64,000 nucleotides of DNA from Burkholderiales bacterium. GTDB lineage: Bacteria; Pseudomonadota; Gammaproteobacteria; Burkholderiales; SG8-39. The first letter of the stretch is position 1, and every line of letters begins with the position of its first letter. Positions 9,040-37,885 of this stretch are shown here, piece by piece. Both the position numbers and the translations under genes were made by a program. The notes beneath the pieces were generated by a model. It worked only from the letters and a program-made list of their open reading frames with translations. It made no database searches and was not told the DNA's origin. The stretch spans positions 37,382 to 101,381 of the forward strand of contig DATGDH010000037.1 in the NCBI GenBank assembly GCA_035310985.1, read 5' to 3'.

Positions 9040-9621
9040 ATGCTCTTCGGAAGACTGGCCGCTGCCGCGGCGATCGCCCTGTCCTGCCTCGCCGTGGCGC
9101 CCACGGCATCGGCCGCCCTAAGCGCGAAGGAAAAGGAGCAGGCGCGCGCCGACGTGCAGAAGATGGCGCGCGAGACGCTCGACCGGCTGTACCGCACGCA
9201 GCCGGGCGCCAAGGCCGCTATCGCGAAGTCGGCGGGTTACGCGGTCTTCAGCAACTTCGGCATGAAGATCTTCTTCGCCGGCGGCGGCAAGGGCACGGGA
9301 CTCGCGATGAACAACCAGACCAAGAAGCCGACCTACATGAAGATGGTCGAAGTCCAGGCGGGACTCGGCATCGGCGCCAAGAAATTCCGGCTGGTCTGGG
9401 TGTTCGACAATGCGAAGGATTTCAACGCCTTCGTCAACTCGGGCTACGAGCTCGGCGGCCAGGCGAGCGCCGCGGCGAAGAAAGGCTCTCAGGGCGGCGC
9501 GTACCAGGGGGCCGTGTCGGTGTCGCCCGGCGTGTGGCTCTACCAGCTGACCGACGAGGGGCTGGCGGCGGAGATCACCGCCAAGGGCACGAAGTACTAC
9601 AAGGACGCCGACCTGAACTAG
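9040..9621 (+). CDS. secreted hypothetical protein (SYLF/DUF500-like by eye)
   Basis: AAAGGAGG RBS upstream. Signal peptide MLFGRLAAAAAIALSCLAVAPTASA. Motifs GYAVFSNFGMKIFFAGGGKGTGLAMN...VQAGLGIGAKK. Confidence 0.6.
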   Translation: MLFGRLAAAAAIALSCLAVAPTASAALSAKEKEQARADVQKMARETLDRLYRTQPGAKAAIAKSAGYAVFSNFGMKIFFAGGGKGTGLAMNNQTKKPTYMKMVEVQAGLGIGAKKFRLVWVFDNAKDFNAFVNSGYELGGQASAAAKKGSQGGAYQGAVSVSPGVWLYQLTDEGLAAEITAKGTKYYKDADLN

Positions 9622-10808
9622 CGCAGCTCGGCGACGAAGCAGGCGCCGCCGCCCTCGCGCGCAAGGCAGCGCGCGTCGCCGCCGTGGCGGCGCGCGATCT
9701 GGCGCACGAGCGCGAGCCCGAGCCCCGCGCCGCTCTCGCCCGCCGCGTGGCGGAAGAACGGCTCGAACACGCGCTCGCGCTCGCCTTCCGGCACGCCGGG
9801 GCCGCGGTCGCACACCGACAGCTCCGCGCCGGCGGCGCGCCTGCGCAGGCGCACGTCGATCGGCGGCGCGCCGTGGCGGCGCGCGTTCTCGAGCAGGTTG
9901 CGGATAAGGCGCCTCAGCAGCCGCGGATCGCCGCGCAGCGCGACCGGCTCGCCTTCGAGCTCGGCGCCCTCGTAGCGCGCGCATTCCTCCGCGGCGAGGG
10001 CGAGCAGGTCGACCTCCTCGTCCGCCTCGCGCCCCTCGACGGCCTCAAGGCGGCTCGCGAGCAGGATCTCGTCGATCAGCTGGTCGAGCTCGCCGATGTC
10101 GCGCTCGAGCTGCGCCTTTCTCTTCGGCTCGGCGCCCTCCTTCATCAGCTCGATCGCCATGCGGATGCGCGTGAGCGGCGTGCGCAGCTCGTGCGAGGCG
10201 TTCGCGAGCAGCGCCTTGTGCGCGTCGACCAGCGCCTCGATGCGGCCGGCGGCGCGGTTGAAGCTCTGGGCGAGGTGCGCCACCTCGTCGTCGCCCTCGA
10301 CGGCGACGCGCGCCGCGAGGTCGCCCGAGCCGAGCGACTCGACCCCCGCCTGCAGCTTCTCGAGCCGCCGCGTCAGGCGCCGCACCACCGGGTAGGCGCC
10401 GACGCCGACGCCCACGGCGACGAGGGCGAGGGTGAGAAACAGCCGCCAGGCCGGGTGCCGCCGGCCGCGCGCAGGGCCCGCCACGAGCCAGCGGCCGTCG
10501 GCGAGCTCGATGCCCGGACCGGCGCGGCGCAAGGGCCGACCGACGAACGCGATCGGCCTGCGCTCGGCGTCGAACAGCGCCACGTCGGCGTGCAGCTCGG
10601 CGGCCAGGCGCTCGAGCGCCGCCTTCTGTTCCGCGCGCGGGGCGCCGGCCGGGGGCAGCGCGTTCTGCGGGAGCCGCTCGAGCGCCTCGTAAACCGGGCG
10701 CGCGAGGCCTGGCTCGACCAGCTGGCGCCACAAGAACCCCGCGGCGAACACGAACACGAGCAGGCTCGCGAGCACCGCGACGTAGATGCGCAGGTACAGC
10801 TTGCGCAT
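9618..10808 (-). CDS. sensor histidine kinase (CpxA-like architecture: 2 TM, periplasmic loop, HAMP, HisKA, HATPase)
   Basis: Start MRKLYLRIYVAVLASLLVF, in frame within track ORF 9618..11303. H-box NASHELRTPLT. The ATG shares 1 nt with the regulator stop (TGATG at 10806-10810). Confidence 0.85.
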   Translation of the reverse strand: MRKLYLRIYVAVLASLLVFVFAAGFLWRQLVEPGLARPVYEALERLPQNALPPAGAPRAEQKAALERLAAELHADVALFDAERRPIAFVGRPLRRAGPGIELADGRWLVAGPARGRRHPAWRLFLTLALVAVGVGVGAYPVVRRLTRRLEKLQAGVESLGSGDLAARVAVEGDDEVAHLAQSFNRAAGRIEALVDAHKALLANASHELRTPLTRIRMAIELMKEGAEPKRKAQLERDIGELDQLIDEILLASRLEAVEGREADEEVDLLALAAEECARYEGAELEGEPVALRGDPRLLRRLIRNLLENARRHGAPPIDVRLRRRAAGAELSVCDRGPGVPEGERERVFEPFFRHAAGESGAGLGLALVRQIARRHGGDARCLAREGGGACFVAELR

Positions 10809-11494
10809 CAGTCCTGCGCCTTGGCGAACACGTAGCCCGCGCCGCGCACCGTGACGATGCGGCGCGGGTTCCTGGGATCGTCCTCGATTGCCTGGCGGAT
10901 GCGTGACACGTGCACGTCGATCGAGCGGTCGAAGGCCTCGAGCGGCTCGCCGCGCAGCGCGTCCATGAGCGCGTCGCGCGACATGACGCGCCCGGCGTTC
11001 TCGGCGAGCGCGACGAGCAGCGCGAACTGGTGCGAGGTAAGGACCTTCTCGGCGCCGTCGACGCGCACCACGCGCGCGCCGCGGTCGATCTCGACGCGCC
11101 CGAAGCGCAGCACGTCCCCGCGCGCGCCGCCGCCGCGCCGCCGCAGGATGGCGCGCAGGCGCGCGAGCAGCTCGCGCGGCTCGAAGGGCTTGGGCAGGTA
11201 GTCGTCGGCGCCGATCTCCAGGCCCACCACGCGGTCCATCGCGTCGCCGCGCGCGGTCAGCATGAGCACCGGCACGTCCGACGAGGCGCGCAGCTTGCGG
11301 CACACCTCGAGCCCGTCGATCCCCGGCAGCGCGAGATCGAGCACCAGCGCGTCGAAGGGCTCGCGCGCGAACCGGGCGAGTCCCTCTTCGCCGCTGCCCG
11401 CGGACGCGACGCGAAAGCCCGCCTGGCCGAGATATTCGGACACCATCTCGGCCAGCCGGGGATCGTCTTCGATCAGCAGGACGTGCGCGGCCAC
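10808..11494 (-). CDS. OmpR-family response regulator (CpxR-like)
   Basis: 228 aa. Motifs VLLIEDDPRL, DLALPGIDG, MLTARGDAMDRVVGLEIGADDYLPKPFEPRELLARLRAILRR. Winged-helix C-terminus ends IVTVRGAGYVF. Confidence 0.9.
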   Translation of the reverse strand: MAAHVLLIEDDPRLAEMVSEYLGQAGFRVASAGSGEEGLARFAREPFDALVLDLALPGIDGLEVCRKLRASSDVPVLMLTARGDAMDRVVGLEIGADDYLPKPFEPRELLARLRAILRRRGGGARGDVLRFGRVEIDRGARVVRVDGAEKVLTSHQFALLVALAENAGRVMSRDALMDALRGEPLEAFDRSIDVHVSRIRQAIEDDPRNPRRIVTVRGAGYVFAKAQD

Positions 11495-11507
11495 GCGCGC
11501 AGTTTAC

Positions 11508-12047
11508 CTATCCGCGCCCGCGCCAGCCGTGCCGGCCGTGTCCGCCGCCGAAGCGGCCGAAGCGCTCGGCGAGCTGCTGCCTTTGCGCGGGAGTGAGCAC
11601 CTCGGCGACGTCGACCAGCGCCTGGGTGAAGCGCCTGGACATCTGCTCGACCAGCCTGCTGCGCTCCGCGCTCAGCTTCTCGATCGCCGCTCGGTCGATT
11701 TTCTCGGCGGTGAACAGCTCGCGCTGCTGCCTGCGCAGGTCGCGCATCTTCTGACGCAGCGGGAACAGATCCTTCGCTGCGGCCTTCACGATCGGGTCGA
11801 TCTTCTGCTTCTGCGCATCGCTCGCGTCCAGCTCGACGTACAGGTGCCCGAGCATGCGGTTGACGCGTGCTTCCGCCTGCACGGGGTCGGCCGGTCGGCT
11901 CATGGTGCCGCGCTCGCGCGGCCCGTCGCCGTCTGCGCCGCGCGCATAGGCATACAGGCCCGTGCCGAGCGCGAGGCCGGCGAGCACGGTGGCGAGCGCC
12001 AGCCGCGCGGGGACGCGACGGCGCTTTTCCGGTTTGGTTTCGTACAT
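11508..12047 (-). CDS. periplasmic Spy/CpxP-family (LTXXQ) protein
   Basis: Start MYETKPEKRRR, followed by a TM/signal segment. Motifs LDASDAQKQKI and LTPAQRQQLAERF. Gly/His/Arg tail. Lies 13 nt upstream of the response regulator on the same strand. Confidence 0.7.
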   Translation of the reverse strand: MYETKPEKRRRVPARLALATVLAGLALGTGLYAYARGADGDGPRERGTMSRPADPVQAEARVNRMLGHLYVELDASDAQKQKIDPIVKAAAKDLFPLRQKMRDLRRQQRELFTAEKIDRAAIEKLSAERSRLVEQMSRRFTQALVDVAEVLTPAQRQQLAERFGRFGGGHGRHGWRGRG

Positions 12048-12114
12048 GATGGCTCCTTGGTTGGGGGTACGGCGCCAGTGTCGCGGCGGCGCGTAATGGC
12101 CTTTTCTCGGCGCG

Positions 12115-12129
12115 GTAAAGTTATGTAAA
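12115..12129. promoter_or_regulatory. perfect CpxR-type direct repeat GTAAA-N5-GTAAA
   Basis: Sequence is GTAAAgttatGTAAA. It lies 68-82 nt upstream of the cpxP-like ATG (12047, minus strand) and 19 nt upstream of the ridA ATG (12148, plus strand). Confidence 0.6.
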
Positions 12130-12147
12130 TCCACCCGAGGAGGCGCC

Positions 12148-12540
12148 ATGAAACGCGAGGAATTCCAGCCCGCAGGGCTGCCGGCCCCGATCAGCCACTA
12201 CTGCGACGCGGTGCGCTGGGGCGACCTGTTGTTCGTGTCCGGCGTCGCACCGCTCGACGAGCGCGGCACGCTCGTCGGCGGCGACGATGCGGCGGCGCAG
12301 ACGCGCCAGATCTTCCGTAACCTCAAGCTCGTCCTCGACGCCGCCGGCGCGGGCTTCGGCGACGTGCTCAAGGTGACGGTCTTCCTCACCGACGTCGCCG
12401 ACCGCACCAGGATCAACCCGGTGCGCCAGGAGTACTTTGGCCGCGCGCGTCCGGCGAGCACGCTGATCGGCGTGCGCGAGCTCGCGATTCCCGGGATGAA
12501 GGTCGAGATCGAGGCCGTGGTCGGCCTACGCGGACGCTAG
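12148..12540 (+). CDS. RidA/YjgF/TdcF family reactive-intermediate deaminase
   Basis: 130 aa. Motifs ISHYCDAVRWGDLLFVSG, KVTVFLTD and PASTLIGV..L....KVEIEAV. Confidence 0.85.
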   Translation: MKREEFQPAGLPAPISHYCDAVRWGDLLFVSGVAPLDERGTLVGGDDAAAQTRQIFRNLKLVLDAAGAGFGDVLKVTVFLTDVADRTRINPVRQEYFGRARPASTLIGVRELAIPGMKVEIEAVVGLRGR

Positions 12541-12546
12541 CGCCGT

Positions 12547-13311
12547 TCACCAGCGCAGCGTCACGCCGAGCAGCAGGCTGTGGTCGAAGACGATGCCGTT
12601 CATGCGGAACTTGACTCCTGCGTCCAGGTCCAGGTCTTCGCGCGGCGAGTAGGTCAGCCCGAGCACGGTGTAGCGCAGCGTGCCGTAGGCCGACGGCAGC
12701 GGGTTGGTGTCGGCGCTGAAATCGGCGACCAGTCTCAGCTTCTCCGAAGGCGAGTACGCCACCGCGCCCGAGATGTGGAATAGCGACTCCCGCCAGCCGA
12801 GCGTGTTGCGGAAGCGCCGGTAGCCGAGGTGCGAATAGAACGCGAACGGTCCGTCCGACCGATAGGTGCCGATGAGCAGCGCACCCCAGGTCACCTCTCC
12901 CGCGCCGAGACCGCGTGCGTCGTCGCCCGTCGGCAGCGTGATCCCCGGCTTGACGCCGAGACTTAGCGCGCCGCGCTCGTAGAAGCGCCACTTGAAGTCG
13001 AGCGAGGTGTCGAGCGGGCCGGTGATCACCTGGCGCCCGGCGTCGTCCTCGCTCACGATCCTGAGCCAGGGCTGGCCGAGCAGCAGGTCCGCGTTCGGCA
13101 GCAGGCCATAGCTGAGCACCGCCGCGGGCTGAGCGCCGTGCACCGTCCTGCCGTCCTCGCTCTGGCGCGCGAGCTCGGCGGTGAGCTCGAGCTGGTACGT
13201 GCCGGCACCGACGGTGCCGGTGTCCTCGGTGATCAGCGGGTGAAAGGCGCGCGCGCTGGCCGCGACGAGCAGCAGCGTGAGACCGGCCAGCGGAGGGAGC
13301 GCCCTGGTCAT
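12547..13311 (-). CDS. outer-membrane beta-barrel protein (MetA-pathway/transporter-like)
   Basis: Signal peptide MTRALPPLAGLTLLLVAASARA followed by FHPLITEDTGT. Alternating amphipathic strands throughout. C-terminus GVTLRW. Confidence 0.7.
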   Translation of the reverse strand: MTRALPPLAGLTLLLVAASARAFHPLITEDTGTVGAGTYQLELTAELARQSEDGRTVHGAQPAAVLSYGLLPNADLLLGQPWLRIVSEDDAGRQVITGPLDTSLDFKWRFYERGALSLGVKPGITLPTGDDARGLGAGEVTWGALLIGTYRSDGPFAFYSHLGYRRFRNTLGWRESLFHISGAVAYSPSEKLRLVADFSADTNPLPSAYGTLRYTVLGLTYSPREDLDLDAGVKFRMNGIVFDHSLLLGVTLRW

Positions 13312-13334: not shown

Positions 13335-13751
13335 ATGCGCCGCCGCTTCCTCGCCTCCCTCGCCGCCCTCGGCTTGCTCCCGATTCCCCGCGCGCAGGCC
13401 GCCGCCCGGGCGCAGCGCCTGCTGATCCAGATCAGCGATTACGACCCGCGGGTGTGGGGGCTTGCGCTGAGCAATGCGCGCAACGTGCGCAACGACCTCG
13501 GCCCGGATAAGGTGCAGCTCGAGATCGTCGTCTACGGCCCCGCGATTCACATGCTGGAGGCCGAGTCGGACTGGCGCGACCGCGTCACGCAGGTGATCGA
13601 CGAGAGCATCCGCGTCATCGCCTGCGAGAACACCATGGCGACCGTCGGGCTGAAACGCGACGACATGCTGGGCGGCGTCGACTTCGTCAAGACCGGCCTC
13701 GCGCATATCATGCAGCGCGAGCTCGAAGGCTGGGCCTACGCCCGGCCGTAA
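13335..13751 (+). CDS. secreted DsrE-like (COG1416-type) protein, paralogue 1, twin-arginine-type signal
   Basis: MRRRFLASLAALGLLPIPRAQA signal. Module motifs LLIQISDYDPRVWGLALSNARN, EIVVYGPAIHML, ACENTM and EGWAYARP. Confidence 0.7.
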   Translation: MRRRFLASLAALGLLPIPRAQAAARAQRLLIQISDYDPRVWGLALSNARNVRNDLGPDKVQLEIVVYGPAIHMLEAESDWRDRVTQVIDESIRVIACENTMATVGLKRDDMLGGVDFVKTGLAHIMQRELEGWAYARP

Positions 13752-13763
13752 GGGCGCCGCGCC

Positions 13764-14447
13764 TCAGGCGCGGATGTACACCCAGCCTTCCTGCATGCGC
13801 TTGACGATCTCGTCGAGCGCGGTCGGGGCGACATGCACGCCCGGGAGAAGCTTGACCGCCGTGCCCTTCTCGCGCAGCCGGTCGGCGGTCTGGTTGCAGG
13901 CGATGTAGGTCAGGTTCGGGTACGCGGCGCGCAGGCGCTCGAGCCTTGCGGCATAGGCCGAGGTGTCGGTGCGCAGGATGTCCATGCCGCTGTTGTTGGC
14001 GACGATCTCCACCTTGACCTGGTGCCCGGCGGCGCGCGCGTCGCGCAAGTAGTCCTCGACCTCCTGCAGCGCCGTGTCGACCACTTCGCCGCGCGAGGAC
14101 GCGATATGCACGAGGATGCGGTCGGCGGCGACGCCGCGCAGCTCGGTGAGGATGCGGCCGGGCGCGAGCGCGTCGTGCGCGAGCCAGCCCGCCAGCGTGA
14201 ACACGAGCGCGACCGCCGCCACGCGCGCCCAGCGCCTGCGGTCCGGGCCGGGCGCCGCGCGCCCCGGATGCACGCCCGCGTAGGCGCTGCGGGTCATGTC
14301 CTTCAGGGTGCGCAGCTCGCAGACGCGGCGCCTGAGCGCGTCGTCGCGGCCCATGCGCTCGACGAGCGCGGTCCAGTCGGCGGCGTCGAGCTGCCCGTCG
14401 ACGAACGCGTTCTGCATCTCCTGCGAGAGTTCTTCGTCGTGGCTCAT
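13764..14447 (-). CDS. anti-sigma factor with one TM helix and a C-terminal periplasmic DsrE-like domain (paralogue 2)
   Basis: Start MSHDEELSQEMQNAFVDGQLD (anti-sigma N-terminal motif). TM helix WARVAAVALVFTLAGWLAHDAL. Then ILVHIASS..., EIVANNSGMDIL, ACNQT and EGWVYIRA. ATGA overlap with the sigma-factor stop (14444-14447). Confidence 0.7.
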   Translation of the reverse strand: MSHDEELSQEMQNAFVDGQLDAADWTALVERMGRDDALRRRVCELRTLKDMTRSAYAGVHPGRAAPGPDRRRWARVAAVALVFTLAGWLAHDALAPGRILTELRGVAADRILVHIASSRGEVVDTALQEVEDYLRDARAAGHQVKVEIVANNSGMDILRTDTSAYAARLERLRAAYPNLTYIACNQTADRLREKGTAVKLLPGVHVAPTALDEIVKRMQEGWVYIRA

Positions 14448-14986
14448 CGAATGCTCCTGATCTTGCTGTTCTGCTCCGCCGCGCAGTCGATCAAGCGCGC
14501 CCTGAGCGCTTCGCGCGCGCGGCACAGGCGGCTCATCACGGTGCCGACCGGCACCTCGAGGATCTCTGCGACCTCGGCGTAGGAGAAGCCCTCCAGATCG
14601 ACCAGCGTCACCGCCTGGCGCTGGCCGAGCGGCAGGCGCTCGATCTCGGCGCGCACGCGCGCGGCGATCTGGTTGCTCGCGCTCGCGGCTTCCGGGGATT
14701 CGCCATGCGCCGCCATGTCCTCGTCGAGCGGCTCGAGCGGCCGCGCGCGGCGGAAATGGTCCTTCAGGCAATTGGCGAGGATCGCGCACAGCCAGCTCTT
14801 CAGGCGCTGGGGGTCGTTCAGCTGCCCGGCGCGGTCGAGCGCGCGCAGCATCGTCTCCTGCACCAGGTCGTCGGCCAGCCCGGCGTCGTGGCACCAGGAA
14901 TACGCGAGCCGGTACAGCGGCTCGCGCTGCGCCTCGACCCGGCCGCGAAACTGCGCCGACACCCCAAACAGCCCCGTTATCCTCAT
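14444..14986 (-). CDS. ECF (sigma-70 family) RNA polymerase sigma factor
   Basis: Start MRITGLFG at ATG 14986; the low-GC upstream extension of the track ORF is rejected. Region 2: LYRLAYSWCHDAGLADDLVQETMLRAL. Region 4: LPLGQRQAVTLVDLEGFSYAEVAEILEVPVGTVMSRLCRAR. Confidence 0.85.
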   Translation of the reverse strand: MRITGLFGVSAQFRGRVEAQREPLYRLAYSWCHDAGLADDLVQETMLRALDRAGQLNDPQRLKSWLCAILANCLKDHFRRARPLEPLDEDMAAHGESPEAASASNQIAARVRAEIERLPLGQRQAVTLVDLEGFSYAEVAEILEVPVGTVMSRLCRAREALRARLIDCAAEQNSKIRSIR

Positions 14987-14994
14987 GCGCGACA

Positions 14995-15021
14995 AGACGT
15001 TCCAGGGCCGAAGTTTATTCC
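14995..15021 (-). promoter_or_regulatory. candidate ECF-type promoter for the sigma/anti-sigma operon (GGAAT-N17-CGTCT)
   Basis: On the minus strand: GGAAT (15021-15017), a 17-nt spacer, then CGTCT (14999-14995). The -10 element ends 8 nt before ATG 14986, implying a leaderless or near-leaderless transcript. Confidence 0.5.
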
Positions 15022-15031
15022 GTGGAATAAA
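15014..15031. promoter_or_regulatory. perfect 8-2-8 palindrome TTTATTCC-GT-GGAATAAA in the divergent intergenic region
   Basis: An AT-rich palindrome in a very GC-rich context. Each arm supplies a GGAATAAA -35-like element, one reading in each direction. Confidence 0.6.
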
Positions 15032-15050
15032 ACCGCGGCGGCGGGCGTCG
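15024..15050 (+). promoter_or_regulatory. candidate ECF-type promoter for the dsrE-like 3/4 genes (GGAAT-N17-CGTCG)
   Basis: On the plus strand: GGAAT (15024-15028), a 17-nt spacer, then CGTCG (15046-15050). It lies about 60 nt upstream of ATG 15112, which has a GGAGAGGAGAG RBS. Confidence 0.5.
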
Positions 15051-15111
15051 TATAGCCGTCGCGGGTGCTTTGCACCCCGATCCACCCACTACAGGACGGA
15101 GAGGAGAGCTA

Positions 15112-15543
15112 ATGAAACAAGTACTTGCGGTCCTTGCGGCGGTCGTCGGCCTGGCCGGTTTCGCCGCTTCCCCCGCCGCGCTGGCCGCCGGCAAGACGTC
15201 GATGAGCCACATCATTATCCAGGTGAGCGACAACGACCCCGGCAAATGGCAATTGGCGCTGAACAACGCGGAAAACGTGCAGGAGGCGCTCGGCAAGGAC
15301 AAGGTGAAGGTGGAGATCGTTGCCTACGGCCCCGGCCTGAACATGCTCAAGGCCGACTCGAAGGCGACCGCGGGCGTGAACGCCGCGCTCGATCGCAATG
15401 TCCAGGTATCGGCCTGCGCGGTGACGATGAAGAAGATGAAGGTCACCAAGGACGACCTGATCGGCGGCGTGACGGTGGTGCCCGGCGGGGTGATCGAGAT
15501 CATGAAGCGCCAGTCCGAGGGCTGGTCGTACGTGCGTCCGTAG
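15112..15543 (+). CDS. secreted DsrE-like (COG1416-type) protein, paralogue 3
   Basis: Signal MKQVLAVLAAVVGLAGFAASPAALA. Motifs IIIQVSDNDPGKWQLALNNAEN, EIVAYGPGLNML, ACAVTM and EGWSYVRP. Confidence 0.75.
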   Translation: MKQVLAVLAAVVGLAGFAASPAALAAGKTSMSHIIIQVSDNDPGKWQLALNNAENVQEALGKDKVKVEIVAYGPGLNMLKADSKATAGVNAALDRNVQVSACAVTMKKMKVTKDDLIGGVTVVPGGVIEIMKRQSEGWSYVRP

Positions 15544-15554
15544 GGGGTCGAGAG

Positions 15555-15992
15555 ATGAAGCGAATCATCGCCAGCCTCGCGCTCGCCGGCGCGATTGCTG
15601 CAGGCGTCGCCCCGGTCGCCCAGGCGAACCCCGCGGCCGAGAGTCACGGAAAGTACCAGCTCGTGATCCAGGTCACCGACGACAATCCCAAGGTGTGGAA
15701 CCTCGCGCTCAACAACGCCTTCGCATTTCAGCGCAACGTCGGCAAGGACAAGTCACAGATCGAGATCGTCGCGATCGGGCCGGGCCTGAACATGCTGAAG
15801 ATGGAATCGAAGGTCCAGGACCGCATCGGCCAGGCGCTCGACCAGAGCATCGACGTCGTCGCCTGCGGCGAGACCATGCACTCGATGAAGGTGACGAAGG
15901 ACGACCTGATCGGCGGCGTGCGCGTCGTGCCCGGAGGCCTGATCGAGATCGCCGACAAGCAGCGCGCGGGCTGGGTCTACTACCGGCCCTAG
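15555..15992 (+). CDS. secreted DsrE-like (COG1416-type) protein, paralogue 4
   Basis: ATG 15555 lies 11 nt after the previous stop. Signal MKRIIASLALAGAIAAGVAPVAQA. Motifs LVIQVTDDNPKVWNLALNNAFA, EIVAIGPGLNML, ACGETM and AGWVYYRP. Confidence 0.75.
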   Translation: MKRIIASLALAGAIAAGVAPVAQANPAAESHGKYQLVIQVTDDNPKVWNLALNNAFAFQRNVGKDKSQIEIVAIGPGLNMLKMESKVQDRIGQALDQSIDVVACGETMHSMKVTKDDLIGGVRVVPGGLIEIADKQRAGWVYYRP

Positions 15993-16825
15993 GCCGTTTG
16001 CGCCGTGAGCGCTTCGGCGCTCAGCATGATCACCTCGATTTCCTGGGTGATCTCCTCCTGGCGCGAAGCGTTCAGGCGCCGGGCGAGGTTTGCAGTGATC
16101 TCGTCCAGGCGCCTGAGCGCCCCTTCCATCTGCTCGAGCCGCCTGCGGTTCTCCGCGATCAGCGACACCGAGAAGGCCTCCTGCAGCGACATCAGGAGCG
16201 CCTGCTCGAGCAGCCCGGCGAAGAATTCCGGCGGCGCGAGCGTGAGGCGCGGCGCGTAGGCGCGCGGGCGCAGCGGCCGCTCGGGCAGCGGCAGCGGCGC
16301 GATCGTGCGCGTCAGCGGCCCCGAGCCGTCCGGACTCTGGTACACGGCCTTGACGTGCAGCGGCCCGGGCGGAGCGGCGCGTTGCACGCGCTCCAGCTCC
16401 GCGGCCACGCGCTGCAGCACCGCCGGAAGCTCCTCGGCGACGTTCGCGCCCGCGACAAGGCCGCCGCCGTCCGCTTCCTCGAGCCGGTCGGCGAGCCGCG
16501 CGCCGACCGCCACCAGCCGCTCGCCGCGCGCGCGCACCGCGCGTGCCTCGGCTTCCAGCGCCTCGTTGAACTCGCCGCAGAAGCCTCGCTCGGAGCCGAT
16601 GACGATGCATACCGTCGCCGCGGGCGCGGCCTCGCCGGGAGGCGCGTGAAAGCACAGGAAGTCGGCCGCCGCGCGCTCGATCGTCGCCATCGCGCGGCGC
16701 TGGTGCTCGAGCAGCCCGGCGAGCGCGCGCAGCTCCATCAACGCGATGTTCTTCATCGCCGAGAGGATGGCGCGCACCTCGCGCAGGCCCGCGAGCCTGC
16801 CGGCGAGCTGGTGGCGCCGCGTCAT
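15989..16825 (-). CDS. atpG: N-type F1Fo ATPase gamma subunit
   Basis: Start [31 protein letters not shown], with ATGA overlap on the atpA stop (16822-16825). C-terminus [19 protein letters not shown]. Last gene of the operon. Confidence 0.8.
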
Positions 16826-18303
16826 GCGGGCAGGCCCCCGACCCAGCCTGCCGCCGCCGCGCTCCAGGATTCGCGCGCGTCTTCGAGCGACAGCGCGCCG
16901 GCGCGCGCGCCGGCGAACAGCCGCTCGAGCGCGGTCTCGAGCGCCTTGTCGTCCAGACCCTCGAAGCGCCGGTCGTTGAAGGCAACCAGCCAGGCGAGCT
17001 GGCACTCCGGCGGCAGCGGGCGCAGCGGCTCCTGCTTGAGCACGCGGCGCAGCAGCCGCCCGCGCGCCAGGCGCGCCTGCAGGCCCGCCTCGAGGCGCGA
17101 ACCGAAGCGCGAGAACATCTCCAGCTCGAGAAACTGCAGGTAGTCGAGCTTCATGCTCGCCGCCTCGCGCTTGATCGCGGCGGGCTGCGCCTTGCCGCCG
17201 ATGCGCGACACCGAGCGGCGCACGTCGATCGCCGGCAGCTGCCCGGCGGCGAACATGCGGCGGTCGAAGTACACCTGCCCGTCGGTGATCGAGATCAGGT
17301 TGGTCGGGATGTAGGCGGCAATCTCGCCCTGCTCGGTCTCGACGATCGGCAGCGCGGTCATGCTGCCTCCGCCGTGCGCGGCGTCCAGGCAGGTGGAGCG
17401 CTCGAGCAGGCGCGAGTGCAGGAAGAACACGTCGCCGGGATAGGCCTCGCGCCCCGGCGGGCGCCTGAGCAGCAGCGACAGCTCGCGGTAGATGCGCGCG
17501 TGCGTCGACAGGTCGTCGTACACCACGAGTGTCTGCCGGCCCGCCTCCATCCAGGCCTCGGCGACCGCGCAACCGGCGAACGGCGCCAGGTACTTCAAGC
17601 CCGGCCTGGCGGTCGCCTCCGCCACGACGAGCGCGCTGTATTCGAGCGCACCACCGGCGCGCAGCGTCTCGATGACCGCGGCGACCGTCGAGCGCTTCTG
17701 GCCGATCAGCACGTACACGCAGTTCACCCCGCGCCCCTTCTGCGCCAGCACCGTGTCGAGCGCGAAGCTGGTCTTGCCGGTACCGTTGTCGCCGATCAGC
17801 AGCTGTCGCTGCCCGTGGCCGATCGGAATCATGCTGTCGGCGATGCGGTTGCCGGTGTAAAGCGGCTTGTTGACGAAGTCGCGCGCCAGGATGCGCGGCG
17901 ACGGCCTCTCGAGCGCTCGGCGCTCGGTGGCGCGCGGCCGCACGCCGCCGTCGAGCGGCTGGCCGAGCGGATCGACCACGCGGCCGAGCAGAGCGTCGCC
18001 GACGCCGAGCGCGAGCCTCTGCCCGGTGAGCGCCGCCGGCGCGCCCGCGCGCAGCCCGGGCGCCTCCTCGAGCAGGATCGCGCCGATGCGCTCGGGCGCG
18101 AGGTGGAACACGAGCGCCGTGCTGCCGTCGTCGGTGCGCAGCAACTCTTCCATCCCCGCCGACGGCAGGCCCTCGATCCACGCCACGCCGTCGCCTACGG
18201 AGAGCACGCGACCGCGCTCGCCCATGCGCAGCGCGAGGCGGTAGTCGCGCAGCCGCTCGGCACGGCGCGCGAGGAGCGGCCGCTCGAGCGCCTCAGGCGG
18301 CAC
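16822..18303 (-). CDS. atpA: N-type F1Fo ATPase alpha subunit
   Basis: P-loop [30 protein letters not shown] near the N-terminus. I place the start at GTG 18303, 8 nt downstream of GGGAGG (18317-18312). The upstream part of the track ORF overlaps atpF. Confidence 0.85.
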
Positions 18304-19042
18304 GCGCGGCACCTCCCGCGAACACGCGCAGCTCGTCGCGCAGGTTCGCCTGGAGCAGCCAGGGCCCGACCGCGACACAAAGCCCGGCAACCAGGGCTTC
18401 GTCCTGCGCGTACTCGGCGCGGCACTCGATGCGCAGGCGCTCGGAGAGCGCGCGCACCAGGCGCGCGCGCGCGGCCTCGGACAGCAGGTGCGCACTCGTC
18501 ACGCTCACGCGCGCGCCGGCGGCGCGCGCCGCCGCGGCGAGCGGGTCGATGCGCTCGGGCGGCCAGCCGGCCAGGTCGGCGGCGAAGACCTCCACCAGGC
18601 GCTCGTCGAGCGCCGGGTCGGCGACGCGCCCGAGCAGCTGCGCGGCGAACGAGCTCGCCTGCTCGAGCGCCTGCTGCTCGGTGTCGCGCTTCCAGTCGGC
18701 TTCGCGCTTCGCCTGCAGTGCCGCGAGCCGGTCGCGCTCGCGCTCGACCGTCTGCGCGACGTCCGCCAGCCCCCGCGCGCGCAAGGCCGCGAGCTCGGAG
18801 TCGAGGGCCGAGCGCGCCTTGAGCCGCTCGCGCTCCCAGTCCGCGAGCCTGCCCTCGAACTGCGCCCGCAGGCGCTCGGCCTCCTCGCGTACGGCCCTGG
18901 CGTCGGCCATCGACTTGTCGATCGCGGCGCGGCGCTTGTCGATCGCCGCGAGCACCGGGCGATAGAGGAACCTGTGCAGGATCCACACCAGCACGACGAA
19001 GTTGACCAGCTGCAGAACGAAGGTGGTGGCGTCGATCTGCAT
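18293..19042 (-). CDS. atpF: N-type F1Fo ATPase b subunit, long form (249 aa)
   Basis: N-terminal TM helix [23 protein letters not shown], then a long charged coiled coil. An extra C-terminal ~90 aa is present ([14 protein letters not shown]...). No separate delta gene in the operon. Confidence 0.75.
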
Positions 19043-19046
19043 GGCG

Positions 19047-19313
19047 TCACTTGAGCAGGAACTCGAGCAGCGGGTTGCGGAACAGCACGATCAGCACGAT
19101 CACCAGCACGTAGATCGCCAGCGACTCGATCATCGCCAGGCCGATGAACAGCGTGCGCGTGACGGCACGCTCCGATTCGGGCTGGCGCGCGATCGCGTCC
19201 AGCGCCTGCGTGATCGCGCGCCCCATCGCCACGGCGGGCAGCATCACGCCGATGGCCATCGCCAGCAGCGCGCCGGCAGTGGATACGATGACGAGCAGTC
19301 CGGTGGCGGTCAT
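19047..19313 (-). CDS. atpE: N-type F1Fo ATPase c subunit (88 aa)
   Basis: MTATGLLVIVSTAGALLAMAIGV...ARQPE...LFIGLAMIESLAIYVLVIVLIVLF. A hairpin of two TM helices with the carboxylate E in helix 2. ATGA overlap with the atpB stop. Confidence 0.85.
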   Translation of the reverse strand: MTATGLLVIVSTAGALLAMAIGVMLPAVAMGRAITQALDAIARQPESERAVTRTLFIGLAMIESLAIYVLVIVLIVLFRNPLLEFLLK

Positions 19314-19996
19314 GATTTCGACTCCTTTCTTTCCTTGGTGAGCTGTTGGGACTGGATGCCGCCGGCGATGTACACCAGCGCGAGCATGCCGAAGATGTAG
19401 GCCTGCACCAGCGCCTCGACCACGTGCAGGAGCAGGATGGGCACCGGCACCAGGAAGCCCGCGACGAGCAGCACCAGCAGCGCCGCCATCTCGAGGCTGG
19501 CCATGTTGCCGAACAGCCGCACCGCCAGCGCGACGGTGCGCGACAGCTCGCTCATCACATGGAACGGGAACAGGAGCGGGCTCGGCGAGAGGTAGTGCCG
19601 CAGGTAGTCGCGCCAGCCCTCGGCGCGCACGCCGTACCAGTGCACCGACAGGAACACCAGGATGGCGAGCGCCGCTGTGAGCGACAGGTCGCCGGTCGGC
19701 GAATGCAGCCCCGGCACGATGCCGGCCAGGTTGGCCACCACGAGGAACACCCACAGCGTGCCGACGAAAGGCACGAGCATGCGCGGGCGCTGCGGAAACA
19801 CCGCGGCGATCGAGCTCTCGATCGCCAGCACCACGCCTTCGAGCACCGTCTGCAACGCGCCGGGCCGCTCGCCGAGCGCGCGCGTCGCAGCCAGGCTGAA
19901 CAGCGCGAGCGCGAGCATGATGCCCCAGGTGGTGACCACCGCGGCGCTGACGCCGAACGGGCCGACGTGGAACAGGATCTCCGACGTTTCCATCAC
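19310..19996 (-). CDS. atpB: N-type F1Fo ATPase a subunit
   Basis: 228 aa, polytopic. Conserved Arg region LSRTVALAVRLFGNMAS. Start is GTG 19996 (GTGA overlap) or ATG 19993 (TGATG overlap) relative to the atpQ stop. Confidence 0.85.
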   Translation of the reverse strand: MMETSEILFHVGPFGVSAAVVTTWGIMLALALFSLAATRALGERPGALQTVLEGVVLAIESSIAAVFPQRPRMLVPFVGTLWVFLVVANLAGIVPGLHSPTGDLSLTAALAILVFLSVHWYGVRAEGWRDYLRHYLSPSPLLFPFHVMSELSRTVALAVRLFGNMASLEMAALLVLLVAGFLVPVPILLLHVVEALVQAYIFGMLALVYIAGGIQSQQLTKERKESKS

Positions 19997-20276
19997 TGCC
20001 GCTCGCGCACGAAGAGGTACACGTTGACGGCGCCCAGCGCCACGCCGGCGAGCAGCAGGCTGATCGTCCAGCGTACCGAGTAGCCCGCCAGCTGGTCGTC
20101 GATCCAGCGGCCGAGGTAGCCGCCGCCGAGCACCGGCAGGATGAACAGCAGCGCCAGCGTGCCGAGGTAGGCGGTCTGCGCGAGCAGGCCCGGGCGCTCG
20201 CGCTCTGCGCGGCGCATGCGCTCGGCCTGGCGCTCCACCGTCTCGCGCAGCTTCGGTTCGCGCTCGGCGTTCGCCA

Positions 20277-20277
<1 letters not shown>
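19993..20277 (-). CDS. atpQ: AtpQ/AtpZ-like small membrane protein of N-ATPase operons
   Basis: Motif GGGYLGRWIDDQLAGYSVRWTISLLLAGVALGAVNVYLFVRE fits the ATPase_gene1-type pattern. I prefer ATG 20277, which shares 1 nt with the atpC stop (TGATG), over the track start at 20298. Confidence 0.65.
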
Positions 20278-23759
<3,482 letters not shown>

Positions 23760-23825
23760 GCATTCAGTCTGCGCCGCGCCCCCTGCGGGGAGTTGATCTA
23801 ACTCAAGAAAGCGCCCCCGTGACCG

Positions 23826-24596
23826 TCAGCCCGAAGTGCGCTTGACGATCTCTCCCAGCGCGCCGAGCAGGTTGACCGGCACCGGAAACACGATGGTGTT
23901 GCTCTTGTCGCCGGCGATTTCCGTCAGGATCTGCAGGTAGCGCAATTGCATCGCCTCGGGCTGGGTGGCCAGCTTGGCGCCAGCTTGCAGCAGCTTTTCT
24001 GCGGCTTGCGCCTCGCCTTCGGAGTAGATGACCTTCGCGCGCCGCTCGCGCTCGGCCTCGGCCTGGCGCGCGATCGCGCGAATCATCGATTCATTCAGGT
24101 CGACGTGCTTGATCTCGACGTTCGCCACCTTGATCCCCCAAGCGTCGGTCTGCTGGTCGAGCACGGTCTGGATGTCGAGATTGAGCTTGTCTCGCTCGGC
24201 GAGCATCTCGTCCAGCTCGTGCTTGCCGAGCACCGCGCGCAGAGTGGTCTGCGCCAGCTGGCTGGTTGCGCCGAGGAAATCGGCCACCTGGATCACCGCC
24301 CTGGCCGGGTCGACGACGCGGAAGTAAACCACCGCGTTCACCTTGACCGAGACGTTGTCGCGCGAGATCACGTCCTGGCTCGGCACGTCGAGTACCATGG
24401 TGCGCAGGTCCATGCGGACCATCTGCTGGATCCCCGGGATGATGACGACGAGCCCGGGACCCTTGACCTTGTGAAAGCGCCCAAGCATGAAGACGACGCC
24501 GCGCTCGTACTCGCGCAGGATGCGCAGCGACGAGACCACCAGCACGATGACGATGATCAGCGCGCCAAAGCTGAAGCTGAAACCGAAGTTGAACAC
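23826..24596 (-). CDS. SPFH/band-7 (stomatin-like, QmcA/YbbK-type) membrane protein
   Basis: GTG start. N-terminal TM helix [13 protein letters not shown]. Motifs [38 protein letters not shown] and [11 protein letters not shown]. Confidence 0.9.
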
Positions 24597-24601
24597 GATG
24601 G

Positions 24602-25972
24602 TTACCCTCCGTTGCCGTTACCGGGCTCGGCGATGACGTCGAGCACCAGGCCTTCTATCGCCGTGACGCGCAGCCGCTGGCCCTTGCGCACCGGCGTGCC
24701 CGAGCGCACGCGCCAGTTCTCGCTGTGCACGCGCGCCCAGCCCTCCCCGCTGAAGTCCTCCAGCGCGACGCCGCCCGCGCCGATCAGCTCCTCGCGCCCG
24801 GTCACCACCGGGCGCCTGCGGCCCCTGACCAGCATGCCGACGACGAAGATGAGGAACGCCGCGCTCGCCGCGGCGATGCCGCCGATCAGCGCGTAGGGGA
24901 TCTCGAAGCCGGGCACATCGGTGTCGATGAGGATGATCGAGCCGATGACGAAGGAAATGAGTCCGCCCACGCCGAGCGAGCCGAAGGCGGGCACGAAGGC
25001 CTCGGCGACCATGAACGCGATGCCGAGCAGAATCAACGCCAGCCCGGCGTAGTTCACCGGCAGCAGCTGGAACGCGTACATCGCCAGCAGGATGCAGATC
25101 GCGCCGACCACGCCGGGCAGCACCAGGCCCGGGTTGGAGAACTCGTACAGCACGGCGTAGATGCCGAGCAGCACCAGGATGTAGGCAACGCTCGGGTTGG
25201 TGATCACCCCGAGCAGCCTGGTGCGCCAGCCGACCTCGTAGTTCTCGACTTTCGCGTCCGCCAGGTGCAGCGTGCGCTCGACGCCGCCCGCCGTCACCTT
25301 GCGCCCTTCGAGCTTGGCGAGCAGCGCCGGCACGTTGTCGGCGACGAAGTCGATCACCTTGAGCCGCGCCGCCTCCGCTGAGGGTAGGCTCACCGCCTCG
25401 CGCACCGCGCGCTCGGCCCACTCGGCGTTGCGCCCGCGCAGCTGCGCCAGGCCGCGGATGTAGGCCGAGGCGTCGTGCACCATCTTGTGCTCGAGCGTGC
25501 TGCCGCCCTCCTCGCCCTTGCCCTTTTTCGCGCCCTTCTCCGGCGCGGGAGTGGAAGGCGCGCCGATCGCGATCGGCGTCGCCGCGCCGAGGTTGGTCGC
25601 CGGCGCCATGGCCGCGAAGTGGCTCGCGTACAGGATGTACGTGCCGGCACTCGCGGCGCGCGCGCCCGAGGGCGCGACGTAGGCCGCCACCGGCACCGGA
25701 GAGGCGAGGATGTCCTTGATGATCGAGCGCATCGCGGTGTCCAGTCCGCCCGGGGTGTCCATCTCGAGCACCACGAGCTGCGCGCCGTCCCTGGCCGCGG
25801 CTTCCAGCCCGCGGTGCACGTAGTCCGCGGTCGCCGGCCCGATCGCGCCGTCGATGGTCAGCACCAGCACCGGCGCGGCACGCGCCTGCGCTGCGCCCAG
25901 CAGGAGCGCGGCCAGCACCAGCAGTCTGCGCAGCTCCAACGCCTTCTCCTTGCGCCCTCGTCCCGAGACCAT
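24602..25972 (-). CDS. NfeD-family membrane-bound ClpP-class serine protease
   Basis: Signal [16 protein letters not shown]. ClpP-like domain [15 protein letters not shown]...MDTPGGL...[14 protein letters not shown]. Central TM bundle and C-terminal OB-like domain. Lies 5 nt upstream of the SPFH gene. Confidence 0.85.
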
Positions 25973-31425: not shown

Positions 31426-32434
31426 CGGCGCATACGGCGAAGGCGGCGGCCAGCTGCTGCGCACCGCGATCACGCTCGCCGCGGTCACCGGCCAGGCGCT
31501 GCGCATGCGCGACATCCGCGCGCGCCGCAGGAAGCCCGGCCTCGCCGCGCAGCACCTCACCGCGGTGCGCGCGGTCGGCGCGCTGTGCGATGCGCGCATC
31601 GAGGGCCTCGCGCTCGGCGCGCGCGAGCTGGTGTTCGCGCCGCGCGCGCTGCGCGGCGGAGAATTCCGCTTCGACGTGGGCACCGCGGGCAGCGTGACGC
31701 TCGTGCTGCAGGCGCTCGTGCCGGCGATGCTCGCGGGCGGCGCCGCCTGCCGCGTGCTCGTTACCGGCGGCACCGACGTGCGCGCCGCGCCGCCGCTCGA
31801 CTATTTCCGCGCGGTGCTGCTCGGCCTGCTCGCGCGCATGGGCGCTCGCCTGCGGCTCTCCGCGCGCCGGCGCGGCTACTTCCCGGGCGGCGGCGGCGAG
31901 GTCGAGCTCGCGGTCGAGCCCGGTGCGCGCCTGCGGCCGTTCACGGCCGCGGCGCCGGGCCGGCTGCTCGCGCTGCGCGGCGCCGCGCACGTCGGCAACC
32001 TGCCGGCGCACATCGCCGAGCGCATGCGCGCGGCGGCGCTCGCAATCCTGCCGCGGGGGGCCGCGATCGACCTCGCCGTGCTCGGCGAGGACGGCGCGCA
32101 GGGCCGCGGCGGCGCGATCGTCGCCTGGGCCGAGACCGAGGCGAGCGTGCTCGGCGCGGGCGAGGTGGCCGAGCGCGGCGTGCCCGCCGAGACGCTCGGC
32201 GAGCGCGCCGGCTCCGAGCTGAGCGCGGACCTCGCCGCGGGCGCCTCGCTCGACGTGCACGCCGCGGACCAGCTGCTCGTCTACCTCGCGCTTGCCGAGG
32301 GGCCGTCCATCTTTACGACGCGCGCGCTGTCGAGCCATGCGCGCACCGCGATGTGGCTGATCGAGCAGTTCCTGCCCGTGCGCTTCGCCGCCGCCGCGCG
32401 GGGGACAAATCTCATGCGGGTCGAAGTGCGATGA
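31412..32434 (+). CDS. rtcA: RNA 3'-terminal phosphate cyclase RtcA
   Basis: 340 aa. Motifs [48 protein letters not shown] and [13 protein letters not shown]. Its ATG lies 14 nt inside the end of the UvrA fusion gene. Confidence 0.9.
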
Positions 32435-33768: not shown

Positions 33769-33801
33769 TGCGGCTCCGTTCACCGCTCCATGGGAGGGGA
33801 C

Positions 33802-34263
33802 ATGATCACACTGACCGTAAACGGCAGGAAAAGACAAGTGAACGCCGAGCCCGACACGCCGCTGCTTTGGGTGCTGCGCGACACGCTCGGCATGACCGGC
33901 ACCAAGTTCGGCTGCGGCGCGCAGCTCTGCGGCGCCTGCACCGTGCATCTCGACGGCAAGCCGGTGCGCTCCTGCGGCACGCCGGTTTCGGCGGCCGCCG
34001 GCAAGCACATCACGACCATCGAGGCGATCGACAAGACTGAGGCCGGCCGCAAGATCCAGGCGGCCTGGGCCGAGCTCGACGTGCCGCAATGCGGCTACTG
34101 CCAGTCGGGCCAGATCATGAGCGCGACCGCGCTGCTCGCCGAGAAGCCGCATCCGACCGACGCCGACATCGACGCCGCGATGGAAGGCAACGTATGCCGT
34201 TGCGGCACCTATCCCCGCATCCGCGCGGCAATTCACAAAGCCGCCGGCACCAAGGGAGCCTGA
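33802..34263 (+). CDS. (2Fe-2S)-binding small subunit of an IorAB/aldehyde-oxidoreductase-type molybdoenzyme, copy 1
   Basis: ATG 33802 follows GGGAGGGG. The product is 153 aa, the same length as copy 2. Motifs [12 protein letters not shown] and [12 protein letters not shown]...CRCGTY. Confidence 0.85.
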
Positions 34264-34265
34264 CC

Positions 34266-36383: not shown

Positions 36384-36401
36384 CAGCCCTTCCAAGCCCC
36401 G

Positions 36402-36434
36402 GCAAGAAGCCCGCTCGCGCGGGCTTCTTGCTTT
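36402..36434 (+). terminator. rho-independent terminator-like hairpin after iorB copy 1
   Basis: 13-bp perfect stem gcaagaagcccgc / gcgggcttcttgc with a 4-nt loop, followed by TTT. It begins 19 nt after the stop. Confidence 0.6.
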
Positions 36435-37855: not shown

Positions 37856-37885
37856 GCAAAGCCTCCACCGGTAAGACCCCGCATG

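Follow-up and report, generated by a model that had tools for sequence, protein, structure and literature searches.

The closest known relatives of the system described here are pairs of extracytoplasmic function (ECF) sigma factors of group ECF26 and their anti-sigma factors, namely RpoE4-EcfR4, RpoE1-EcfR1 and RpoE6-EcfR6 of Sinorhizobium meliloti and the proposed RpoE-sorAB of Starkeya novella. RpoE1 and RpoE4 of S. meliloti are activated by sulfite from thiosulfate or taurine and control the sulfite oxidase SorT, and the anti-sigma factors that go with ECF26 members are mostly COG5662-type over both their N- and C-terminal regions (PMC3511301). Here, a stretch of 64,000 nucleotides from a Burkholderiales bacterium (contig DATGDH010000037.1; ~70% G+C; the whole stretch is referred to as the window) was analysed, of which positions 13335-15992 encode an ECF sigma factor, a putative anti-sigma partner for it and three DsrE-like proteins predicted to be exported. 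With a confidence slightly better than even, we interpret the pair as an ECF26-like, autoregulated and sulfur-responsive sigma/anti-sigma switch, whose sensor would be a periplasmic DsrE-like domain with a single cysteine.

As appears to hold for the window pair, the ECF26 pairs are autoregulated, the sigma gene being co-transcribed with the gene of a single-pass anti-sigma factor, and the same -35/-10 elements and spacing are found (rpoE4). The systems differ in the extracytoplasmic region of the anti-sigma factor, which is COG5662-type in ECF26 but DsrE-like in the window, and in their targets, which are SorT, cytochrome c and pseudoazurin in the known cases and DsrE-like proteins or Sox in the window's family. 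New here would be the DsrE-like sensor domain on an ECF26-like, probably sulfur-responsive sigma/anti-sigma system, and the family concerned is large and undescribed. An initial annotation of the window had known of no such anti-sigma sensor, and literature searches on DsrE, anti-sigma, ECF, sox, COG1416 and MTH1491 found none either. Both the extracytoplasmic sensing of reduced sulfur and the regulation of Sox outside the Alphaproteobacteria are poorly understood.

SoxR, the Sox regulator known in Alphaproteobacteria, shares with the present family the transcriptional control of sox genes, but is a cytoplasmic repressor. The same kind of control has been described for ECF sigma factors of Arcobacter butzleri, where sox may be affected indirectly; as far as searched, that report makes no tie to a DsrE-like domain (PMC3445524). 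A gene for a DsrE-like sulfurtransferase of the periplasm, MHY1_00068, whose product is a putative sulfur carrier, is part of the Methylovirgula thiovorans HY1 sox operon and resembles in this the exported DsrE-like genes of the soxXYZA-soxB-dsrE-like strings described below; its homology to the module studied here is assumed, and the paper brings it up in one passage and draws no link to a sigma/anti-sigma pair (PMC9371685). MHY1_00073 of the same organism, described as a DsrE-like sulfurtransferase bound to the membrane, was considered as a misread anti-sigma fusion and rejected, as the paper identifies it as DsrE2A (PMC9371685). Published 'DsrE-like' genes of Acidithiobacillus are of the cytoplasmic, Hdr-associated type and not relevant.

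Architecture of the locus

Four copies of a module of ~110 amino acids (aa) were found in 13335-15992. Three of them are stand-alone proteins, predicted to be exported and encoded on the plus strand by genes A (13335-13751, 138 aa), B (15112-15543, 143 aa) and C (15555-15992, 145 aa), as delimited by a scan for open reading frames (ORFs). The fourth is the C-terminal domain of the anti-sigma factor (13764-14447, minus strand, 227 aa), whose start codon overlaps the stop codon of the sigma factor gene (14444-14986, minus strand, 180 aa) in an ATGA (checked in the sequence, CGATGAGCC). Each of these features, including the coupling, lay where the initial annotation had placed it, the shared motifs that it quoted are visible in the alignment of the four modules, and its overall picture of an ECF sigma/anti-sigma pair accompanied by exported paralogues was confirmed. 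B is 57% identical to C (E=7e-49), 47% to A (E=1e-38) and 33% to the C-terminal half of the anti-sigma factor (E=1e-14), and by this similarity, which is far above chance, the four modules are true paralogues. Gene C starts 11 bp past gene B, and the two are probably co-transcribed, while gene A is convergent with the anti-sigma gene.

Signal peptides were judged by inspection of the sequences. Protein A carries a twin-arginine-type signal (MRRRFLAS..., MRRRFLASLAALGLL) followed by a hydrophobic region, and the R-R-x-F-[LF] motif is kept in the A-type orthologues examined. Sec-type signals were recognised in B, the hydrophobic N-terminus of which closes in AALAAG, and in C, in agreement with the assignment made earlier; A, B and C contain one cysteine each. 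Of 92 ORFs that were classed as stand-alone in the related loci, a set that includes a few fused members missed by the motif filter, 87 likewise had a hydrophobic N-terminal segment, typically with an AxA-like end site. A, B and C are accordingly listed here as predicted exported proteins.

Relation of the sigma factor to ECF26

The product of 14444-14986 is, by its domain content, an ECF (group 4) sigma factor: Sigma70_r2 (E=8e-14) and Sigma70_r4_2 (E=5.5e-18) were detected, both as expected, and no other domain, and the NCBIfam model sigma70-ECF (TIGR02937) gave 86.7 bits at a cut-off of 42.9. Among specific NCBIfam models the best was PRK12511, below its cut-off, which is also the best model for the ECF26 member RpoE6 from S. 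meliloti pSymA, and RpoE6 and the window sigma factor are 38% identical (E=2e-24). Promoters of ECF26 sigma factors of S. meliloti have been mapped by 5'-rapid amplification of cDNA ends or RNA-Seq (PMC6180224). The mapped rpoE4 promoter (GGAATAAGCGAGGCAGCTCGCTCGTCT) fits the motif GGAAT[AG]-N16-CGTC of the window's family exactly, spacing included, and the promoter of the rpoE1 operon ahead of its first gene SMc01418 (GGAATAAATCCATAGCCCTCCGTGTCTT) is close to the window motif (PMC6180224). Promoter motif, RpoE6 identity and PRK12511 together point to an ECF26-like sigma factor and not to an orphan type. The main text of the ECF classification paper PMC7826278 mentions neither DsrE nor sulfur. 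A tie between the DsrE-like family and the sulfite-responsive ECF26 factors would point to a broader sulfur-responsive ECF clade with interchangeable sensor domains.

The DsrE-like module is of the MTH1491 type

The initial annotation had expected PF02635 matches for all four modules, which held for B (33.9 bits) and C (30.6 bits) at the gathering score of 22.7, whereas A (20.3 bits) and the anti-sigma domain (15.6 bits) fell below it. PF02635 was matched at E<=0.1 by 8 of 29 members of the fusion family, and no NCBIfam model matches any of the four modules. Much stronger evidence for a DsrE-like fold came from solved structures. B matched PDB 1L1S (MTH1491) in phmmer with E=1.5e-18 and 2PD2 (ST0148) with E=5e-10, and a profile of the 29 fusion proteins matched 1L1S across the whole C-terminal domain (E=3.2e-13). 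In the AlphaFold model of the anti-sigma protein (mean predicted local distance difference test score, pLDDT, of 80.7, and 87-93 over most of the C-terminal domain) this domain was superposed by Foldseek on 1L1S with a target-normalised TM-score of 0.90 and a root-mean-square deviation of 1.9 A, and on 2PD2 with a TM-score of 0.85. Because of the PF02635, 1L1S profile and fold matches the module can be called DsrE-like in a broad sense, and within this superfamily it is, as judged by these comparisons, a member of the MTH1491/COG1416-type branch and not a relay protein of the DsrEFH/TusBCD kind.

MTH1491 and ST0148 are thus its nearest solved relatives by sequence and by fold, and share with it the A-C-x-x-T cysteine and the C-terminal EGW-x-Y-x-R motif. 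Unlike the module, they are archaeal, stand-alone and never fused to an anti-sigma domain, and as their PDB chains comprise 108-113 aa they have no space for an N-terminal signal segment. The structure of MTH1491 was released in 2002 and is still titled protein of unknown function; the present data suggest a periplasmic role for proteins of this type. MTH1491 also figures in a chemical-biology paper (PMC5495134). With DsrEFH, TusBCD and DsrE3A the module has in common the Pfam superfamily PF02635 and a conserved cysteine after a beta-strand, at the start of a helix. DsrEFH and TusBCD are, however, cytoplasmic hetero-oligomers with dsrF/H or tusB/C partners, while the modules described here are predicted to be exported or extracytoplasmic; dsrF/H-like partner genes were not seen in the related loci, where all DsrE-like ORFs form one cluster of this module type.

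A large family of fusion proteins

In the protein collection, full-length fusions of anti-sigma and DsrE-like domains were found with as little as 38% identity, in at least 148 clusters at 90% identity. An exhaustive hidden Markov model (HMM) search of 50%-identity cluster representatives gave 2317 matches at E<=0.001 and 516 at E<=1e-30, and the best 150 of these matches were nearly all full-length (220-277 aa). Among ten family clusters sampled, none bore an informative name and none came from a cultured organism. A scan of one genome per species led to 79 loci, 78 from metagenome-assembled genomes and one from a single-cell assembly. They carry labels of Beta- and Gammaproteobacteria (among others Sulfuricella, Thiohalobacter, Thiogranum, Sedimenticolaceae, Thiotrichales, Woeseiaceae, Ectothiorhodospiraceae and Gallionellaceae), a few clearly mis-binned, and many of the labels are those of sulfur-oxidiser lineages. 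The nearest relatives of the window are soil Burkholderiales genomes, with up to 93% identity. The genes are co-conserved in ~80 genomes; the sigma/anti-sigma gene pair itself is kept in ~78 loci.

Topology of the anti-sigma factor and its lone cysteine

Three parts can be distinguished in the anti-sigma protein. The N-terminal, predicted cytoplasmic domain (aa 1-58; 14274..14447, minus strand) contains an NAFVDGQLD motif, conserved in the family as NAFVDGxLD, and the near-invariant Cys43 (family alignment), and was modelled by AlphaFold as a helical bundle (helices 9-16, 22-34 and 36-55, pLDDT ~88-91). Over 37 aa it shares 38% identity with the N-terminus of the ORF on pSymA that lies behind the mapped promoter of ecfR6 (SMa0144), an ORF we took to be EcfR6. 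A transmembrane helix follows at about aa 74-93 (14169..14228, minus strand), as seen from hydrophobicity, with VAAVALVFTLAGWLAHDAL (aa 76-94) as the most hydrophobic 19-mer, and from the AlphaFold helix 73-93. Lysine and arginine residues number four on its N-terminal and two on its C-terminal side in the window protein, and 3.2 before and 0.96 after the helix on average in the 12 flanking residues of the family (n=69), a positive-inside bias for N-in/C-out in 66 of 69 members. The third part, the MTH1491-type domain (aa 108-227; 13767..14126, minus strand), is therefore predicted to be the extracytoplasmic sensor domain, and the order of anti-sigma N-terminus, single helix and outer DsrE-like domain agrees with the topology first proposed.

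The initial annotation had pointed out that all four window copies keep the cysteine of the A-C-x-x-T motif, which is correct, and in related loci the conservation extends to every fused module (69 of 69) and every stand-alone one (83 of 83). In the window anti-sigma factor it is Cys184 (codon at 13896-13898, translation checked). It is the sole extracytoplasmic cysteine in 67 of 69 fusion proteins, and exactly one cysteine is present in each of the 83 stand-alone modules. An intramolecular structural disulfide is impossible for a lone invariant cysteine, which suggests a reactive thiol. DsrE3A, a member of the DsrE superfamily, carries thiosulfate on a cysteine as Cys-thiosulfonate (PMC4175335), and by analogy the module cysteine may be comparable to this carrier cysteine or to that of SoxY.

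The fused copies have their own set of invariant residues (His114, Asn151, Gly154, Arg217, Trp222 and Tyr224), in which they differ from the stand-alone proteins; of these His114, Asn151, Gly154 and Arg217 are absent from the stand-alone modules, which argues for a dedicated ligand site in the sensor domain. They also bear on whether the domain senses at all. Many ECF anti-sigma factors have extracytoplasmic domains with an unclear role in signal perception, and the DsrE-like domain might likewise be structural or anchoring, with the anti-sigma factor under the control of some generic signal from the envelope, for example a protease cascade or a further protein, and the paralogues mere cargo of the regulon. 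Such conservation of family-specific polar residues and of the lone cysteine over at least 516 clusters, down to less than 30% identity, would be hard to explain for a passive module, and we consider this possibility very remote.

Promoter motif and regulon

The 125-bp intergenic region between the sigma gene and gene B contains two copies of GGAATAA-N15-CGTC, arranged back to back. One is the predicted ECF promoter of the sigma/anti-sigma operon (14996..15021, minus strand, GGAATAAACTTCGGCCCTGGAACGTC, 9 bases to the ATG), and the other that of the B-C pair (15024..15049, plus strand, GGAATAAAACCGCGGCGGCGGGCGTC); a promoter had been suggested before at 15024-15050, and it coincides with what is now seen to be a phylogenetically conserved ECF-type motif. 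Exactly these two matches to GGAATA-N15-17-CGTC occur in the window, compared to 0.11 expected. The one ahead of the sigma gene shows the AAC-type -35 and CGT-type -10 elements expected of an autoregulated ECF sigma factor. In 834 kb of related loci, 106 matches to GGAAT[AG]-N16-CGTC were counted versus 3.25 expected from Markov-simulated sequence, and a spacing of 16 alone was enriched, with 2-7 matches for each of the spacings 12-15 and 17-21. As the spacer sequence varies between loci, the signal is not plain sequence inheritance.

Among the 106 matches, 58 lie ahead of a sigma gene and 37 ahead of a stand-alone DsrE-like gene, as in the divergent gene B. Five precede soxY (L085, L037) or soxX (L055, L056, L061), one precedes a gene pair for a periplasmic thioredoxin and DsbD (L050), and for the remaining five no ORF was called or another gene follows. 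A one-base variant, GGATTA-N16-CGTC, was found ahead of a dsrE-porin-trx-yeeE string in seven Woeseiaceae-type loci (L056, L058, L060-L062, L081 and L086). These matches strongly suggest an autoregulated ECF sigma factor with a regulon of exported DsrE-like proteins, to which Sox and periplasmic thiol-redox genes would be added where present. In the window itself, B and C but not A carry a sigma-type promoter, as predicted by the motif; a search for one before gene A or the adjacent outer-membrane gene found none, and the membership of gene A in the regulon is uncertain for lack of this upstream motif.

Some further features of these promoters were observed. Together the two divergent -35 elements make up TTATTCC-GT-GGAATAA (15014-15029), an almost perfect inverted repeat that is kept in the window's clade, and two holoenzymes would have to bind within ~55 bp at the back-to-back promoters. 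The distance from CGTC to the sigma ATG is 9 nt in the window and 8-9 nt in L011, L015, L016 and L019-L023, and so short a distance between -10 element and ATG suggests a sigma transcript with little or no leader; the gammaproteobacterial relatives have ~40-55 nt here, and several soxX genes start 12-13 nt past the motif. The GGATTA variant is clade-specific and sits inside a conserved AAGGGATTA box in the dsrE-like/sigma intergenic region, while in the same loci the canonical GGAATA form stands ahead of the sigma gene and soxX.

Gene neighbourhoods and alternative signals

For the analysis of neighbourhoods, all ORFs of the 79 loci, of L001 and L003 and of the window were clustered, with a filter on GC by codon position, and flank statistics refer to the 61 loci with enough upstream flank (~6 kb either side). 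Apart from additional module copies, the sigma gene (78 loci) was the only near-universal partner. Stand-alone DsrE-like genes, one or more per locus, were present in 45 of the 61 loci, and in 31 of them such a gene lies directly upstream of the sigma gene in divergent orientation.

This prominence of the paralogues would be expected if they were part of the signalling itself. The exported DsrE-like proteins may bind the sensor, for example in mixed trimers, so that carrier load or abundance sets sigma activity and the sensor cysteine serves for hand-over only. Sensor and paralogues have one fold and the same cysteine position, a stand-alone paralogue is the commonest motif target after the sigma gene, and MTH1491 is said to have been crystallised as a homotrimer by Christendat et al. 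in 2002. The pair occurs, however, without a stand-alone paralogue or sox gene in 13 of the 61 loci, and the invariant residues confined to the fused copies point to a distinct ligand site instead of mimicry. As an account of its own we regard such partner switching or feedback as unlikely; it is compatible with a sulfur-responsive sensor, and both may hold.

Sox genes are among the recurrent neighbours. SoxY, SoxZ, SoxA, SoxX, SoxB and a SAXB-like ORF were recognised by Pfam and NCBIfam and, taken as a group, occur in 8-10 loci. SoxY is a true SoxY (TIGR04488, 152.7 bits, cut-off 125), and SoxB reached 869 bits with TIGR04486 (cut-off 550); the model of the SoxAX-binding protein, NF052674, gave a weak match of 53.3 bits, under its cut-off of 95. 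In Woeseiaceae-type loci (L056, L058, L060-L062) genes for yeeE, trx, porin and a dsrE-like protein diverge from those for sigma factor, anti-sigma factor, binding protein (SBP) and an HbpS-like protein, followed by a converging string of soxX-Y-Z-A, SAXB-like ORF, soxB and dsrE-like gene, and in the betaproteobacterial loci L085 (Sulfuricella), L036 and L037 soxYZAXB is divergent from the sigma gene. A binding protein gene of the SBP_bac_11 (sulfate/thiosulfate/molybdate) type directly follows the anti-sigma gene in related loci, and YeeE/YedE sulfur-transport proteins, DsbA, DsbH-type thioredoxins and full-length DsbD are other recurrent neighbours. Thioredoxin-like genes, for TrxC-type and for periplasmic thioredoxins, were detected in 19 of 61 loci, and a gene for a phosphate-porin-like outer-membrane protein is near in 20 loci.

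The thiol-redox genes among these neighbours raise the question of a more general signal. The system could be a periplasmic thiol/disulfide or oxidant sensor, the regulon of which restores reducing power and includes Sox since SoxYZ needs reductive reactivation. This would suit the frequent thioredoxin-like genes, the motif ahead of the thioredoxin/DsbD pair in L050, the L003 genes for DsbA and a DsbH-type thioredoxin that come right after the anti-sigma gene (DsbH-type alone in L047), and the window's clade, which has no sox gene but an OmpR-type two-component system and a gene for a Spy/CpxP-like chaperone as neighbours. The dominant regulon member is, however, a DsrE-like protein and not a thiol-disulfide oxidoreductase, yeeE and SBP_bac_11 genes lie within the same clusters, the taxon labels are rich in sulfur-oxidiser lineages, and promoter and sigma type match those of sulfite-responsive sigma factors (PMC3511301). 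A general redox signal thus appears improbable to us.

In the 38%-identity relative L003/L004 the sigma/anti-sigma pair stands without a stand-alone DsrE-like gene, with CMD (AhpD-like) and radical-SAM/SPASM genes upstream, DsbA and DsbH-type thioredoxin genes downstream, and genes for a cytochrome c peroxidase-like protein and a Rieske/molybdopterin oxidoreductase in the vicinity, a context that suggests a rewiring of the family to other periplasmic redox functions.

Proposed mechanism

The cytoplasmic N-domain would hold the sigma factor, as is usual for such families, until reduced or sulfane sulfur (e.g. thiosulfate, polysulfide, persulfide or sulfite) appears in the periplasm. Cys184 might read this signal by direct reaction, as a persulfide or thiosulfonate, or through sulfur handed over by the exported paralogues. 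Once modified, the sensor would put the anti-sigma factor out of action, probably through regulated proteolysis, a route known from other anti-sigma factors with a single membrane pass. The freed sigma factor would transcribe from GGAATAA-N15-CGTC its own operon and the B-C pair in the window, and in related Beta- and Gammaproteobacteria also soxYZAXB or soxXYZA-soxB-dsrE-like operons and the thioredoxin/DsbD pair; the GGATTA-N16-CGTC variant would serve the dsrE-porin-thioredoxin-yeeE clusters of relatives. As the window is without sox genes, the output there may be the handling or detoxification of sulfur species by DsrE-like proteins and not lithotrophy. Architecture, predicted topology, conservation, the promoter motif with its targets and the link to Sox genes are results of sequence analysis. 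The regulon is well supported, and the sensing chemistry is what we infer: the proposal of the initial annotation that the cysteine senses a sulfur species gains indirect support from the sox, yeeE, thioredoxin and DsbD neighbours that share the promoter motif, while its chemical part stays conjectural.

Several observations weigh against a sulfur-responsive switch. No sox homologue was found in the 64-kb window, where the regulon consists of DsrE-like paralogues alone, so that sulfur oxidation is linked to the system through distant relatives (30-45% identity), and just 8 of the 61 loci have at least two sox genes within the flanks considered. The Trx, DsbA, DsbD and DsbH neighbours are just as compatible with a general thiol-redox signal in the periplasm. 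MTH1491 and ST0148, the nearest relatives by structure, are proteins of unknown function, and profile comparison to TusD/DsrE by hhalign placed Cys184 opposite the catalytic Cys78 in both runs, but with E=0.037 and E=0.2, which is not significant and was rejected as proof that the two cysteines are equivalent. The assignment of the N-terminal 58 aa as an anti-sigma domain draws on gene context plus weak sequence matches, with zf-HC2 found in 5 of 29 members (best E=0.0011), RseA_N in 3 of 29, and E=0.32 for the family profile against the N-domains of RseA and MucA. Finally, none of the 79 loci or sampled proteins comes from a cultured isolate, in a scan that started from an 11-sequence alignment and used peptide patterns favouring close relatives, so that it may have passed over more remote members in cultured organisms.

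An extension of the sulfur-responsive switch, which we offer tentatively and hold to be doubtful, is that in this widespread and undescribed family the periplasmic DsrE-like receptor ends a sulfur relay, reached directly, through the exported carriers or through SoxYZ, and by switching an ECF26-like sigma factor acts as the long-missing Sox regulator in many uncultured sulfur oxidisers of the Beta- and Gammaproteobacteria. If true, this would be the first function for the MTH1491/COG1416 branch of DsrE-like proteins. In its small single-cysteine domain the family offers in any case a concrete candidate receptor, whose regulon is compact and whose output promoter, GGAATAA-N15-CGTC, is defined, and the set of sigma factor, anti-sigma factor and promoter could serve as an orthogonal biosensor for sulfur compounds.

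Neighbouring genes in the window and in other loci

An outer-membrane beta-barrel gene (Phenol_MetA_deg; 12547-13311, minus strand) is divergent from gene A at a distance of 23 bp, as first annotated. As only these 23 bp separate the two start codons, the promoters of the outer-membrane gene and of gene A must sit within coding sequence. The gene is part of a block (9618-13311) that also encodes RidA, a Spy/CpxP-like LTXXQ protein, an OmpR-type response regulator and a histidine kinase, and that is kept beside the DsrE system in the window's clade only. On the other side, a complete alternative ATP synthase operon (15989-22039, minus strand; beta, epsilon, ATPase_gene1-like, a, c, b, alpha, gamma), with a gene order that we take to be typical of N-type ATPases, adjoins gene C, the stop codons sharing 4 nt. 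The same juxtaposition was seen in L005/L021 (69% identity) and, by clusters of ATPase subunits, also in L010-L012, L016 and L019. Both the N-type ATPase operon and the 9618-13311 block are probably incidental neighbours of the window's clade.

Further away, 26005-31425 (plus strand) encodes a protein of 1806 aa with repeated ABC/UvrA-type ATPase domains, UvrA_inter and UvrA_DNA-bind. A similar UvrA-type gene (1845 aa) lies directly by DsrE-like paralogues in the distant locus L001 and is apparently split in L009. The stretches 22023-25972 and 31412-40630 encode a PhaC polyhydroxyalkanoate synthase, a Band7/NfeD pair, the RNA 3'-phosphate cyclase RtcA and two large molybdopterin-binding subunits of the aldehyde oxidase/xanthine dehydrogenase family, none of them obviously related to sulfur.

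When plasmids were searched by tblastn with the fusion protein, stand-alone modules only were obtained, in Azospirillum, Rhizobium and Runella, with little to be learned from the Azospirillum context. In the cultured host Azospirillum brasilense (L089; plasmid p2, NZ_CP032347.1, 813097-814754) the match is a hypothetical protein with 30% identity to the DsrE-like half of the query, whose gene has a 'site-2 protease family protein' gene immediately upstream and trxC in its vicinity.

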